From NCBI GenBank assembly GCA_964633205.1, contig CAZWFN010000007.1, positions 3,002 through 67,001 of the forward strand: DNA of 64,000 nt. The letters are read 5' to 3'. The first letter of the stretch is position 1; each line of letters starts with the position of its first letter. Of the stretch, positions 51,401 through 57,400 are shown piece after piece. The stretch is from an uncultured Myxococcales bacterium. Lineage in GTDB: Bacteria > Myxococcota > B64-G9. The position numbers were made by a program.

Positions 51401-54400
51401 CGGCCGGCGCCGAACGACCCCGGGGGCTCACTCTTCCCGGAACACCTTCAGCGACTGGTCGAGCTGGTGCTCCATGCAATCGACGATCAGCTGGTGCAGC
51501 TCGGTGGTGCTGGCGCGCAGTGACTCGTAGTAGCGCTGGCGCTCCACATCCGGCACGATCACCGGCAGGTAGCCGGCCCGCAGGATGAAGAAGTTCATCA
51601 TCAGCCGGGCCACCTTGCCCGAGTCGTGATCGAAGGGAAAGATGGTCATCAGCCTGAAGTGGATCTCGGCCGCCTGCTGGATGGGGTGGTGTTGCTTGAA
51701 CTCCTTGCTCTTGATGTCGCGCACCAGCTTGTTCATCTGGTAGGAGATCTTGGACGGCACCGCGATGTCGTGGAAGTAGGTGCGGTGGATGGGGATTTCC
51801 TTGCGATAGACCCCGCCCTGCTGGTTGCTGAGCCCGTGCGACAGCACCTGGTGCAGCTGCTTGATGAAGGTCAGGGTCGGCGCCCGGTTGGACTCGGTGG
51901 CCACCTTGCGCATCTTGTCGATGGCGGCCTTGTGGTTGCGGATACGCTGGTAGACCGGAATCAGGATGCCGTCGCCCATGGTGACGTGGTCGAGCGCCGC
52001 CTTGAGGTCGAAGATGTCGAGCACCGTGCCCTCGAGCGCGTTCTCGTGGAATATCCACGAGACCTCGAAGCGCTCCTCGAAATCCCGATATTGTTCCTTG
52101 TGTTGCGCGAAGGAGTGGCGCAGCTCGTCGGTCTTGTCGTCGATATCGAAGTAGACGGTACGCAATGGAGTTTCCTCGCAGCTCAGCCGGACCGGCCCGC
52201 ACACCGGGCGCCGGGCTGTCTCCTACCACAGCCGCCCCCGGATGTCAAAATCGAAGCCCCGCTTGTGCTTACATGACCACGAAGAAGGACTCACAGGCCT
52301 GGTCGATCAGATCCTTGGTCAGCTGGGGCTTGACCCGGCGGAAGCGGGCCACGTCGATCAGCAGCCCGATGATGTCGCGCGGATGGCAGGAGCGCAGATC
52401 CATCTCGTACTGGCGGTAGTAGCTGTCCAGGATGTAGTTCAGGGCCTCGTCCGAGAAGCGGATGCCCTTGGCCCCGCAAACCAGCTGGAAGATCTTGCGG
52501 TACTCGGCCTCGGTGGGGTTGGCGACCTCGATCTTGTACTTGATCCGGCGCAGGAAGGCCTCGTCCACCAGCTCCTTGGGGTCGAGGTTGGTGGCGAAGA
52601 TGATCAGCTGGTCGAAGGGGATCTCGAACTTCTTGCCGGTGTGCAAGGTCAGGAAATCGATTCGCTTCTCCAGCGGTACAATCCAGCGGTTGAGCAGGTC
52701 GGTGGGGTGGACCCGCTGGCGGCCGAAGTCGTCGATCAGCAGCATGCCGCCGTTGGCCTTGACCTGGAACGGCGCCTCGTAGAACTGGGTGTTCGGGTTG
52801 TAGATCAGGTCCAGCGTATTCAGGGTCAGCTCGCCGCCGACCATCACCGAAGGCCGCCGCGACAGCAGCCAGCGCCGGTCGAACTCGGGGCCGGCCTTTT
52901 TCTTGACCGGCGTCCGCATGCCCTTGATGGGCGGCGGCCGGTTGGGCCGATCGAGATCGAGCGGCTCGTGGCTGAGCGGATCGAAGACCTTGATCACCTG
53001 GTGATCGACCTCGATGGCGTGCGGCACGAACACCTCGCCGCCCAGCAGGTCGGCGACCATCTCGGCCACCGTGGTCTTGCCGTTGCCGGGCGGCCCGTAG
53101 AGGAACAGCGAGCGGCTCGAGTTGACCGCCGGGCCGATGTGGTCGAAAAACCCGGACGGCAACACCAGGCCCTTGAAGTGCTCCAGCAGGTGTTCGCGGG
53201 TGATGAAGGGCACGTCCTGCATCTGCAAGCGAATCAGCGAGGTATACTGCTCGAGGGGCACGGGCGCCCTGCCGGTGTAGGACGAGCGGCGCACCGCCTC
53301 GCGGGCCACCTCGCGCCCGCGCTCGGTCAGGGTGTAGCTGAACGAGGCCCGGCCGAAGCCCTTGCCGCCGCGCATCTCCACGAAGCGCTCCTCGGCCAGG
53401 AAGTTGATCACCACCTCGATCACCCCGGAGAAGGGCAGCCCGATCTCATCGGCCAGCTGCACCCCGGTCATCACCCCGCCATAGTAGAGAAACTTCAGCG
53501 CCAGATCGTTCAAGAAGCCCAGGGTCAGGCCGGTCTCCTCGACGTTGCGCGGCTGGGGCGGGGCCAGATCCAGAATTTCCGGTCTTTCCAGTCCGAACGG
53601 ATTTTCCATGTCGCTGCTCCCCAATCGTCCAGCTCGTGCTCAGCCCTTGACCCCACCGGCGGTCAGGCCTCCGACCAGATGGCGCTGCAGGGCGAAAAAC
53701 AGCGCCACCACCGGGATCGAGACCAGGATGGCGCCAGCGGCGAAATGCCCCCACTCGACGTTGGTCTCGGAGACGAAGCCGTTGAGCATGACAGGCAGCG
53801 TGGTGGCCGTCTCCTCGTTCATGAAGGTGGCCGCCAGGATGAACTCGTTCCAGGCGGTCATGAACGAAAACAGGGCGGTGACCGCGATCGCGGGCCGCGC
53901 CAGGGGCAGGATGATGCTCCAGAAGATGCGCACGCGGCTGGCCCCGTCGATCACCGCCGACTCCTCGAGCTCGCGGGGGATGGTGTCGAAGAAGCCCTTG
54001 AGGGTCCAGACGCAGAACGGGATCGAGGTGGTCGAGTAGACCAGGATCAGCCCCAGCAGCTGATCCAGCAGCCCGAGCTTGTCGACCAACAGGTAGAGCG
54101 GAATCATCATCATGGTGCCGGGGAACATCTGGATCACCAGAAAGCTCAGCAGGCCCGCCCGGCGGCCCGGGAAGCGGAAGCGGCTGAAGGCGTAGGCGGC
54201 GGTGCAGGCCAGGAAGATGCCCAGCAGGGTGGTCACCGCCGAGACCACCACCGAGTTGAACAGCTGGTGGCCGAACAGCCAGACCTCCTCGCGCTCCATG
54301 GCCCCGATGGGATCCTGGCGCAGGCCCAGCGCCCGGGCGTTCTCCCGGGTCGGTGCCTGCAGCCAGGCCGTGAGCGTGGCCCGCGACCGCCGGCCCACCC

Positions 54401-57400
54401 GGTCCAGGCTGCCGCCCAGGCCGTCGCGGCCGTGGCCGCGCAGCACGTGACAGGACAGGCAGCGCTTGCGCTCCAGCTTTTGGAGCAAATCGGCGCCGGG
54501 CGGTGACGCCGGGCGGGCAGCATCCGCCGCCGCCGGCTCGCCAGGGCCGAGCACGGCGTCGACCGGCGGGGCGGGCGGGGCCGGCTGGGGGATGGCCGCC
54601 AGCGCGGCGGCCAGCCCGCGCGCATCGGCGTCGCTCAGCTGGGGGCCCAGCCCCTCCACCTTGGAGCGGGTGACCAGATCGCCGAAGTTGTCCAGGCTGA
54701 GCAGCTCCGGATCGGGCAGCGGCAGCAGCGAGGTGTCGAAGGCCTGCCGGTCCTGGAAGGCGATCTGGAACACCTTGGCCACCGGGAACAGCACCGATAT
54801 GGTGAAGCCGATCAGGAACAGGTGGATCACCACCCGGCCGGTCTTGGTGCGGCCCTGGCTCAATCGAACGCCCCTTCGGTGGCCTTGGTGATGCGGTTGG
54901 TCATCAGGGTGTAGATGAACAGGATGACGAAGATCAGCGTCGAGTAGGCGGCCGCGTAGCCGTAGCGATCACCCCGCTCGAAGGCCCAGCGGAAGGCTTC
55001 GATGACCAGGATGTCGGTCGAGCCGTTGGGCGCGCCGCGGCTGACCAGGTAGATGATATTGAACATGTTGAAGGTCCAGATCGAGCCCATGATGATGGCC
55101 GGAAACAGCGCCGGCTTGAGCAGCGGCAGGGTGATGCGCCGGAACTTCTGCCAGCGGGTGGCGCCGTCCACGTCGGCCGCCTCGTACAGGTCCTGCGGGA
55201 TCGACTGCAGCGCGCCGAGCGAGATCACCATCATGAAGGGAAAGCCCAGCCAGCAATTGGTCACCAGGTTGGCCAGAAAGGCGGTCCCGGTCGACTGCCA
55301 CCAGGAGAAGCCCTCCATGCCCAGCAGGTGGTTGATCACCCCGTCGTCGGCGTCGAACATGCCGCGCCAGATGATGGCGGTGATGTAGTTGGGGATGGCC
55401 CAGGGGATGATCAGCAGCACCCGGTACAGCCCGCGCAGCTTCAGCAGCGGGTCCTTGAGCAGCAGGGCCAGGCCCAGGCCCACCGCCAGGTGGATGAACA
55501 CGTTGAGCCCGGTCCACAGCACGGTGATGAACAGCTTGTAGTAGAAGCTGAAGCTGTCGCTGATGGCGTACTCGCGCGAGGACAGGATGTCGACGAAGTT
55601 CTCGCCGCCGACGTAGAAGTACTCGCCCTGGTAGTAGCGGAAGAAGCCCAGGCCCAGGCCCACCACGAAGGGCACGAACACCAGCAGTCCGATGGCCAGC
55701 ATGGCCGGGCCGATGTAGGCGTATGCGCTGCGCTGCTTCCAGGCCTGGCGCAGCATGCGGCGGAAGCGGCCGAAGAACACCGCGATGAAGATCAGCAGCA
55801 CCAGCAGCGCGCCGCCCAGGCCCCAGAACACCGCCTGGGCGAACTGATCCTCGCCGCCGGCGGTCTTTTTCAGCGCCGAGCCCTTGCGGAAGTCGGCGAT
55901 GCGGTGGGCGGCCTTGCGCTGGGCCTCGGCCAACGCCTGGGCGGGCGTGGCCCGGCCGGCGATGGCCGCGTCGAGCGCCCGGCGCAGCGGCTCCCAGACC
56001 ATGCCCATCTCGGGGTCGGCCCGCATCGGCTCGGCGTACTTGAGCTGCTCGCGGAACACCCCCAGCACCGGGTCGGCCACCGCCTCCGGCTCGCGGTAGA
56101 GCGCCACGTTGGCCACCGTCTGCAGGCCGCGGTGCATGCGCACCCGGGCCGCCTCGTCCGCGGTCAGCCAGTTCATCACGGTAAAGGCCTGCTCCGGATG
56201 GCGCGACGCGGCCGACAGCAGCAGCGCCTCGGTGCCCATGAAGGGCTGGGCGCGCACGCCGGAGAGGTTGATCTCGGGCAGCAGCGCCACCCCGTAGTCC
56301 ACCCCGGCGGCGATCTCGGCCCGGAACCAGGGCCCGTTGATGACCATGGCCGCCCGGCCGGCGTTGAACAGGGTGGTGACCTTGACCGGGTCGACGTCCT
56401 GGGGCAGCAACCCCTCGACCACCAGCCGGCGGACGAAGCGGATCGACTCGGCGTTGGCCGGGGTGTCGAGCCGCAGCTCGCCGTGCGAGTCGAACAGGCC
56501 GCCGCCGAAGCCGAACAGCCAGCAGGCGTGGATGTAGGGATCGGAGTGGTTCCAGACCAGGCCGTAGCTGGCCAGCTCGCCCTCGCCGCCGCCGCTGTGC
56601 CGGCGCGCCAGGACGATCATCTGCTCGGTGTTCTCGGGCGGTCGCTGCAGCGCGTTCTTATCGTAGAACAGCACCGTGGTCTTGTAGGCGGTGGGCAGGC
56701 CGTAGAGCGCCCGCCGGTAGATCAGCGGCTGGATGGTCTTGGAGAAGAAGCGATCGGTGATCGCGTCCGAGACATAGGCCGTCAGCGGCGCGATGTGGCC
56801 CGAATCGGCCCAGCCGCCGATGCGATCGTGGGCGGCGACGAACAGGTCCGGGCCGTGGCCGCGCGGAATGCTGGCGTTGAGCTTGTCCAGGTAGGCGTTG
56901 TAGGGCAGGAAGGACAGATCGATGCGGATGTCGCGGTGCCGGATGTTGAACTCGGTCACCGTGGCCTCGAGCGCCTCGCGCTCGTCGCCGCGGTAGGCGT
57001 GCCACAGCGCGATCTCGACCGGCTCGGCGCGCACCGGCCCGGCCGCGGCCGCCAGCAGCAGGCCTGCCAGCAGGGCCCAGCCGAGGCTGCCGGTGCTGCG
57101 GCTCAAGCGATGGTCTCCCCGGTGCGGGCGTCGAACAGGTGGGCCCGCTCCAGATCGGGCACCAGGTCGATCGCCTCACCCATCTCGGCCGCCGCCTGCG
57201 ACTCCTGGCGCACGGTCAACAGGGTCTCGCCCAGCCGGGCGTAGATCATGGTCTCCGAGCCCATCGGCTCGACCACCTCGACCCGGGCCCGCATCCGCTC
57301 CGGACGCGGCTGCTCGGCGGCCGGCTCGACCGCGAGATGATTGGGCCGCAGCCCGAGCTCCAGCTCGCCGCTGCGTTCGGCCAGCGCCCGCTGCAGCGAG

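Follow-up and report, generated by a model that had tools for sequence, protein, structure and literature searches.

Introduction

ATP-binding cassette (ABC) importers are usually seen as being controlled from the cytoplasm, for instance by EIIAGlc or MalT acting on MalK, and by whether substrate is bound to the binding protein. In Escherichia coli, the periplasmic loops P1 of MalG and P2 of MalF contact MalE throughout the transport cycle (PMC6906923). In the maltose/maltodextrin transporter of Bdellovibrio bacteriovorus, MalE is fused N-terminally to MalF, which fixes the two at a 1:1 stoichiometry (Licht et al. 2019, as cited in PMC6906923). This report concerns a related system in a 64,000-nucleotide stretch of DNA from an uncultured Myxococcales bacterium (GenBank assembly GCA_964633205.1, contig CAZWFN010000007.1, positions 3,002 to 67,001 of the forward strand; hereafter the window). 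One of its genes, here called malG-cyt, encodes a MalG-like permease with a domain derived from class I cytochromes c in loop P1. Full-text literature searches brought up no account of a cytochrome c domain in the permease of an ABC importer.

Like MalG of the E. coli/Salmonella MalFGK2-E complex, the window protein belongs to a type I ABC importer and has six transmembrane (TM) helices, the N-terminus inside, an EAA loop and a loop at the P3 'scoop' position; its operon likewise supplies a MalK partner with regulatory domains. It differs in scoring below the MalG equivalog cut-off, in its ~130-residue cytochrome-derived insertion in P1, and in a MalF that seems to lack P2 and is fused to MalE. 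The N-terminal fusion of the binding protein to MalF is shared with the Bdellovibrio transporter. As far as the account in the review goes (PMC6906923), no cytochrome or other insertion is mentioned for Bdellovibrio MalG, and by that description the two are set apart. The fusion also distinguishes the window operon from insert-less Myxococcales relatives, in which MalE and MalF are unfused.

Covalently bound haem c in a periplasmic domain is known from several sensors. In GSU0582 and GSU0935 of Geobacter, in DcrA of Desulfovibrio and in the Cache_heme receptors, the periplasmic domain that bears one such haem has a TM helix on either side and serves to relay redox or ligand state across the membrane (PMC3460858, PMC8396549, PMC12889525). 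The insert described here is similarly placed, between TM1 (residues 12-34) and TM2 (residues 201-223). Whereas the sensors have PAS or Cache folds and outputs to chemotaxis or kinases, the insert appears to be class I cytochrome-derived and sits in a transporter. No PAS or Cache match to it was found in Pfam and profile searches, and its sequence relatives are class I cytochromes. The sensors are the closest functional analogy for the mechanism proposed below, a likeness confined to mechanism. The cytochrome c domain of the SCO1/SenC fusion (2l4d) is likewise a module recruited into a non-respiratory periplasmic protein, but by terminal fusion to a thioredoxin-fold copper chaperone rather than by insertion into a loop of a polytopic transporter. 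TfcP of Myxococcus xanthus is a periplasmic cytochrome c with a non-electron-transfer role, in which haem is required for stability (PMC8833165). TfcP is soluble and stand-alone, with His/Cys ligation and a very low potential, whereas the window protein keeps the canonical His/Met pattern.

Results

Permease Part and Topology

The malG-cyt gene (53640..54863, minus strand) is an open reading frame (ORF) whose translation of 407 amino acids (aa) reads as a MalG-like permease of an ABC importer into which a cytochrome c-like domain is inserted. It starts at a TTG that shares a TTGA with the stop codon of the gene upstream. On the independent Logan contig L001, a gene with an identical product of 407 aa had been called, with the gene order unchanged. 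The Pfam analysis of the whole protein returned BPD_transp_1 (PF00528) only, at residues 215-397 (E 2.9e-21, 76.5 bits against a cut-off of 26.4). The best NCBIfam match was MalG PRK10998, over residues 201-407 only, with 183.6 bits against an equivalog cut-off of 261. As this score lies below the cut-off, the product is best described as MalG-like; maltose is not established as the substrate, and an oligosaccharide is presumed.

The core MalG transmembrane domain, TM2-TM6, comprises residues 196-407 (53643..54278, minus strand) by Pfam, NCBIfam and hydropathy. It includes the EAA loop RELEESAVIDGASRVRIFWSIILPL (residues 297-321, 53901-53975, minus strand) and a P3 loop at the 'scoop' position (residues 345-373). 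TM1 was placed at residues 12-34 (54762..54830, minus strand) by hydropathy and the positive-inside count, and an AlphaFold2 helix spans residues 7-36. With TM2 at residues 201-223, the loop between TM1 and TM2 is 166 aa long (residues 35-200). Hydropathy and the positive-inside rule predict six TM helices and a cytoplasmic N-terminus, the short loops 1-11 and 224-235 containing seven K/R and no D/E. The insert is predicted to be periplasmic because the EAA loop is cytoplasmic and three TM helices separate the two. The periplasm is the compartment in which haem is attached to apocytochromes c. The full-length AlphaFold2 model was too weak for use (predicted local distance difference test, pLDDT, 59.7).

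Boundaries and Parts of the Inserted Domain

The MalG proteins P0066 and P0100, from Myxococcales, are insert-less, with ~280 aa and a P1 loop of ~35 aa, and are 77-78% identical to the window protein over the aligned part, which covers about half of the query. In the alignment with them, the extra residues 65-194 fall between 'NFxDLV' and 'WLFGxQLxNS'. Residues 35-64 (54672..54761, minus strand) are common to P0066 and P0100 and represent the ancestral first part of P1. The inserted domain of ~130 aa (residues 65-194, 54282..54671, minus strand) is absent from the plain Myxococcales MalG.

The insert begins with a helix, GLGPQLSDADARGLAAALAAIP (residues 71-92, 54588..54653, minus strand), here called the pre-helix, which is the homologue of the C-terminal helix that, in tandem cytochromes, comes after the Met of the preceding domain. 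It is followed by a variable, low-complexity linker (residues 93-122, 54498..54587, minus strand), delimited by its low identity in the alignment and its lower pLDDT. The linker varies in length and composition, being Pro/Ala-rich in the window protein and poly-Asp/Glu in many orthologs. The cytochrome c core (residues 123-191, 54291..54497, minus strand) contains an N-terminal helix, CxxCH, GLGGxL, the L..WL..P helix and the PxGxM loop. The haem-attachment motif, CLSCH (C135, C138 and H139), occupies residues 135-139 (54447..54461, minus strand). The proposed distal ligand, M189, lies in PIGAM (residues 185-189, 54297..54311, minus strand). The P185-x-G187-x-M189 loop follows C135 by 50 residues, and the corresponding loop lies 50-53 residues past CxxCH in the closest free-standing cytochromes (P0121-P0127).

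A first-pass annotation of this DNA had proposed a MalG-type permease with a class I cytochrome c domain in the first periplasmic loop. The profile search, hhalign and topology agree on a class I cytochrome-c-derived domain at this place, and the hydropathy and positive-inside analyses put the CxxCH motif on the periplasmic rather than the cytoplasmic side. The motifs it named were all recovered in the translation of the gene: CLSCH at 135-139, L..WL..P at 164-171, IGAMER at 186-191, and the EAA loop. It had also read a glycine string as 'G.G...G.L.R.G.R'. A glycine-rich stretch is present, but the first half of that string was off by one, the residues being G143-H-G145-R-D-G148-L-G150-G151-S-L153-D-R155-V-G157-R-R159.

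Homology to Class I Cytochromes c

No cytochrome family was matched in Pfam, either by the whole protein (E<=1) or by the isolated insert (E<=10). A profile built from 22 inserts was more informative. When PDB sequences were compared with this profile, 22 of the 23 matches at E<=10 were c-type cytochromes. The top match was a cytochrome c555 trimer (E 6.7e-5), and the best single-domain match was 2l4d, the cytochrome c domain of the SCO1/SenC fusion (E 3.4e-4), with CxxCH, G.G..L and WL..P aligned.

An exhaustive HMMER search with the profile against 1.84 billion representatives gave 899 proteins at E<=1e-3 and 118 at E<=1e-10. The whole profile was matched in just one 50%-identity cluster (P0015), into which every MalG-cyt protein falls. 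The next-best matches, P0121-P0128 (E 1e-29 to 1e-22), are 288-400 aa long, and their inspected members have a hydrophobic N-terminal region followed by two cytochrome domains. Ten relatives were scanned, and in each of them the region matched by the profile passes Pfam Cytochrom_C (PF00034). Among the 150 matches listed, 149 are non-MalG proteins; 148 of these bear 1-9 CxxCH motifs, and none of the 149 has an ABC permease domain. The insert has G-G-x-L in place of the typical G-P-x-L, and GGxGGxL is also present in the closest relatives, which pass PF00034.

To judge by these matches, the insert is clearly descended from class I c-type cytochromes. The first-pass annotation's expectation of a cytochrome c profile match thus failed in Pfam and held strongly for the family-specific profile. 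Because this profile matches cytochromes strongly, the Pfam negative is best read as a limit of sensitivity, not as absence of the domain. With class I cytochromes (PF00034/PF13442 and the tandem P0121-P0128), the insert shares CxxCH, the G-rich loop, L..WL..P, NA..LG.R and P.G.M at the same spacing. It differs from them in being missed by Pfam, in being cut Met-to-Met, and in being embedded between two TM helices of a transporter. Free-standing class I cytochromes, by contrast, are soluble or singly anchored electron carriers.

The apparent donor family, P0121-P0128 (for example L023 8001-9170), consists of uncharacterised ~390-aa proteins with two tandem class I cytochrome c domains. Their N-terminal region of ~190 aa is hydrophobic and multi-TM, and has no Pfam match. 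P0122, the closest di-cytochrome that stands alone, lies among housekeeping genes, which gave no functional clue.

A Register-Shifted Domain

In the free-standing relatives, a C-terminal helix follows the distal Met, as in 'GAMASYALSEQEARLVATWLRSL'. MalG-cyt lacks such a helix after the Met, and its chain passes from GAMER straight to a beta-strand and on to TM2. A similar helix, 'GLGPELSxEDVxxLxxFLAxVP' (residues 71-92), instead precedes the CxxCH domain. By hhalign, residues 73-191 are collinear with P0122 269-369 (probability 98.6%, E 5e-16), a region that spans from just past the Met of the first domain to the Met of the second, and BLASTP reproduced this alignment. In a joint alignment with the tandem cytochromes, 'rMPxFxLSxxE' of the preceding domain pairs with 'eGLGPELSxED', the helix being retained and the first Met lost. 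Many multi-domain cytochromes match best from profile positions 10/11 to ~96/97, that is, over the helix, linker and CxxCH. The pre-helix gave weak PDB matches to the C-terminal helices of cytochromes c6 and c4.

On the collinear hhalign and BLASTP matches, the joint alignment and the multi-domain match positions, the insert reads as a Met-to-Met slice of a tandem di-cytochrome, register-shifted and in effect circularly permuted. This collinearity would explain why the usual C-terminal helix precedes CxxCH. The first-pass annotation had taken the domain for an ordinary class I cytochrome; the conserved CxxCH and distal Met agree with this, but the domain is a Met-to-Met slice without a helix after the Met, and not the canonical unit. 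The domain has a CxxCH motif, a distal Met whose position fits at the sequence level, homology to accepted members and a predicted periplasmic location. No curated Pfam profile scores it above gathering, and the order of its elements is not canonical. It is best called cytochrome-c-derived and permuted.

An AlphaFold model of the insert only, made from the joint alignment, had a pLDDT of 89.0 and a predicted template modelling score of 0.77. In this model, the two ends pair as beta-strands to form a stalk, the pre-helix (model helix 17-28) has a pLDDT of 95-97, that of the linker is lower, and the core helices lie at the places expected for a class I domain. In three dimensions, the pre-helix may occupy the site of the C-terminal helix. 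A Foldseek comparison of the insert model with the PDB gave no match.

Conservation and Selection

A protein search over 5.8 billion sequences returned 36 full-length insert-bearing clusters at 90% identity, plus fragments. The conservation alignment comprised 37 sequences, in which the orthologs were 62-93% identical overall to the window protein. The residues C135, C138, G145, G148, G150, G151, L153, L168, P185, G187 and M189 were invariant. H139 was kept in 36 of the 37 sequences, the exception being P0036, with CFACD in place of CFACH. The conservation of the motif among orthologs was therefore borne out, with both Cys and the Met invariant and the His nearly so. To judge from the alignment, the CxxCH/Met motif of the insert is far beyond chance. 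The lineages that keep the His and the distal Met with its P-x-G-x-M loop differ widely in base composition, the GC content at third codon positions (GC3) of their genes ranging from 0.62 to 0.90.

The ratio of non-synonymous to synonymous substitution rates (dN/dS) was estimated by the Nei-Gojobori method against seven orthologous genes; the values are rough, with dS near saturation, and the regional ordering is consistent. The TM domain had a dN/dS of 0.08-0.14 and an amino acid identity of 87-94%, the cytochrome core a dN/dS of 0.23-0.60 and an identity of 41-57%, and the linker, which is nearly free of constraint, a dN/dS of 0.4-2.6 and an identity of 6-18%. As its dN/dS and identity are intermediate between those of the TM domain and the linker, the core evolves fast yet under selection, and its invariant residues are those predicted to bind haem. 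In a subgroup of orthologs (P0021-P0036), the ~15 residues (PTxENAxxLGxRxx) that otherwise separate the WL helix from PTGAM are missing (alignment columns 186-205). This element of the core would thus be dispensable, since the whole subgroup is without it.

Distribution and Related Insertions

A degenerate DNA scan of 185,579 species genomes for the motif C-x2-C-H-x-L-x3-G-x2-G-L-G-G-x-L gave 13 matches. Nine of these were malG-cyt genes, all directly downstream of malE::malF, in genomes titled as Myxococcales, Myxococcota or 'Deltaproteobacteria' metagenome-assembled genomes (MAGs). The other four (Dongiaceae, Treponemataceae, Aquificaceae and an alphaproteobacterium) had no similarity to MalG and were rejected as chance matches. 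The malG-cyt architecture was seen in Myxococcota MAGs only, in one 50%-identity cluster. The closest genome was an uncultured Myxococcales MAG (CAYVQE010000024), with 92% identity in MalG and 95% in MalE::MalF.

Sister MalGs of ~600-636 aa (P0075, P0077, P0080, P0104 and P0107; L022 7001-8818) carry a Cys-rich insertion at the identical P1 site. They have several conserved Cys, no CxxCH, and a multi-TM N-terminal extension of ~230 aa. These ~600-aa relatives were considered as a larger version of the insert, and this was ruled out, their P1 insert being Cys-rich without CxxCH and their N-terminus having extra TM helices. Since a different insertion is found at the same site, P1 looks like an insertion hotspot in this lineage.

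The source annotations carry sugar or arabinogalactan/maltooligosaccharide permease names only (JGI: 'arabinogalactan/maltooligosaccharide permease'). The NCBI proteins P0037 (282 aa) and P0039 (269 aa) begin inside the insert, P0039 even after CxxCH. The full-length ORF is intact in the DNA of both loci, L008 (JAFCZJ010000089.1) 1241-2467 and L005 (JAFGRB010000222.1) 122-1300. As the starts were called inside the insert while the ORF is intact, the NCBI annotation of these two proteins omits TM1 and the first part of the insert.

Operon and Neighbouring Genes

Directly upstream of malG-cyt lies a malE::malF fusion of 748 aa (54860..57106, minus strand), with Pfam SBP_bac_1 at residues 41-320 and BPD_transp_1 at 551-739 and with NCBIfam matches to MalE and MalF. 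In it, the binding domain is joined to a MalF-like permease via an extra TM helix. The MalF part matches E. coli MalF from position 264 on only (NCBIfam), and the periplasmic loop after its TM helix 2 is short; for these two reasons, it seems to lack the large P2 docking domain. The next gene encodes a MalK-type ABC ATPase of 361 aa (57103..58188, minus strand, from the translation), whose orthologs in related loci bear ABC_tran, OB_MalK and TOBE_2. At the malK/malE::malF and at the malE::malF/malG junction alike, a TTG start overlaps the preceding stop codon as TTGA, an arrangement suggestive of translational coupling. An AAA-like ATPase of 446 aa (52269..53609, minus strand) is encoded 30 nt downstream of malG-cyt; its matches, which are weak and to Cdc48/p97 and IteA, are confined to the P-loop region.

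The gene order malK, malE::malF, malG-cyt, AAA-like ATPase was found in the window and in three further lineages. A malE::malF gene lay directly upstream of every malG-cyt examined, and an AAA-like ATPase of ~450 aa lay downstream in all the insert-bearing operons examined (besides the window, at L015 11225-12574, L017 11142-12497 and L019 4804-6144). By contrast, the loci of the insert-less MalG P0100 (L021) and of the 605-aa Cys-rich P0104 (L022) have separate malE and malF genes, and the AAA gene is absent.

No other CxxCH-bearing ORF was found in the window or in any MalG-bearing locus; elsewhere in the ~317 kb of related loci, such ORFs were confined to the stand-alone di-cytochromes and one chance-match locus. 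Neither the window nor the flanking regions examined in four related operon lineages contained an oxidoreductase, a quinol dehydrogenase or a second cytochrome. No ccm or ccs (WWD-motif) gene was found in the window or the ~317 kb, which are a small part of each genome, so that this result is uninformative for maturation.

Further genes surround the operon. A Fic-domain gene (51428-52204, minus strand) follows the AAA gene; it is kept in several orthologous loci and absent in L015. Beyond it lies an M1-family peptidase gene (49493-51337, plus strand). A class A penicillin-binding protein (PBP1A-like transglycosylase/transpeptidase, recognised by sequence motifs only) is encoded divergently upstream of malK (~58400-60888, plus strand); in other lineages, a Glucodextran_C-domain protein sometimes takes its position. 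BcrAD/BadFG-type activator and HGD-D (2-hydroxyacyl-CoA dehydratase/benzoyl-CoA reductase-like) genes occupy ~46150-49420 (plus strand), as assigned by Pfam on the identical contig L001. Together with MAG sources such as Guaymas and Zodletone, these genes suggest an anaerobic lifestyle, which bears on any redox-sensing idea.

Discussion

We give a probability of roughly 55% to the combined explanation, that MalG-cyt is a MalG subunit with a spliced-in mono-haem cytochrome module acting as a redox-dependent docking or regulatory module. Its product would then be the MalG-type subunit in the membrane part of a maltose/oligosaccharide-type ABC importer (MalK2 / MalE::MalF / MalG), with a mono-haem class I cytochrome c module spliced into P1. 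In this module, the helix that follows the Met of one domain would come first, then a flexible linker, and then the adjoining domain, which would extend from its N-terminal helix via CxxCH to its own Met. A short beta-stalk would lead from the module directly into TM2. Loop P1 would be exported by Sec, and the cell's Ccm or Ccs maturation system would attach haem covalently to C135 and C138, with H139 and M189 as axial ligands. Haem loading of the insert with this ligation is considered likely, because an exported loop fits established cytochrome c biogenesis.

The haem domain would form the main periplasmic protrusion of the membrane subunits, beside the docking face of the tethered MalE. It is placed there because MalG P1 contacts MalE in E. 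coli, MalF P2 is apparently gone, and MalE is tethered. It would serve the tethered MalE in docking or regulation, with a conformation or charge set by the redox state of the haem, so that sugar import would track the periplasmic redox state. This redox-dependent regulatory role, drawn by analogy, is the reading we favour, tentatively and at less than even odds. Redox-gated import, in which the oxidation state of the haem or displacement of the Met ligand alters MalE docking and thereby switches ATP-driven oligosaccharide uptake, is held to be possible but less likely than not.

Other explanations were weighed against this one. The domain may be a purely structural docking platform for the tethered MalE, with haem as a structural cofactor and no redox behaviour, like E. 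coli MalF-P2; this ranks close behind the favoured role and is a tentative possibility in its own right. MalF here seems to be without its P2 loop, MalG P1 touches MalE in E. coli, and no redox partners are encoded nearby. TfcP provides a precedent in Myxococcota for a cytochrome c with a non-electron-transfer role whose haem is needed for stability (PMC8833165), and P1 tolerates structural insertions, since the related MalGs hold a Cys-rich non-haem insert at the same site. A structural platform explains the invariance of both axial ligands less well, though haem-dependent folding could account for it, and the insert-less and Cys-rich relatives function with unfused MalE and MalF, so that a docking platform is not strictly required. 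An electron-coupled function is improbable; in it, the haem would exchange electrons with a partner in the periplasm or the respiratory chain and pass them to or from the transporter or its substrate (for example in redox modification of the sugar or electron-driven gating). His/Met class I cytochromes are usually electron carriers, which speaks for such a function, as does the fact that the closest relatives are membrane-anchored di-haem and multi-haem cytochromes. However, the window and the flanks of the four operon lineages hold no oxidoreductase, quinol dehydrogenase or second cytochrome, and a single haem on a transporter would be without an obvious acceptor. The intact MalK with its regulatory domains indicates that transport is ATP-driven. 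The lack of a redox partner, other cytochrome or maturation gene in the operon contexts argues mildly against dedicated electron coupling.

The insert might also be a relic that has lost its haem, the CxxC pair now forming a periplasmic disulfide or metal site that stabilises a small helical domain. The missing Pfam cytochrome match, the permuted order without a canonical C-terminal helix, the one ortholog without the His and the replacement of the typical G-P-x-L by G-G-x-L would fit this idea. A disulfide needs neither His nor Met, yet the His (36/37) and the distal Met in its P-x-G-x-M loop are kept across lineages with a GC3 of 0.62-0.90, and GGxGGxL also occurs in the closest relatives that pass PF00034; we regard a relic as unlikely, to the same degree as electron coupling. 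An artefact is ruled out, whether a CxxCH that occurs by chance, a chimera of the assembly or an ORF called wrongly. The absence of a Pfam match and the NCBI gene calls that begin inside the insert in some MAGs could have pointed to one, but the ORF is continuous in nine species-representative genomes and in many independent metagenome assemblies of differing sources, the insert region is under purifying selection, and the truncated NCBI calls sit in loci with an intact full ORF.

A cytochrome c domain in the permease loop of a sugar importer may couple sugar uptake to extracellular redox conditions, and the architecture is surprising for transporter specialists. The insert illustrates that slicing a tandem repeat out of register can yield a functional domain, here a permuted cytochrome. 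Curated profiles and annotation pipelines overlook such domains, here with a blank Pfam result, permease-only names and NCBI starts within the insert. Built into the periplasmic face of the permease, a haem c domain would provide a control point of a new kind or, failing that, a docking module that is new in bearing a cofactor; it would also offer a compact system for studying the coupling of periplasmic redox state to transport. If redox gating were true, no ABC importer before this one would have had a redox-active cofactor as part of a membrane subunit, and in sediment Myxococcota uptake would be turned on or off with the redox state of the periplasm or with the supply of electron acceptors.

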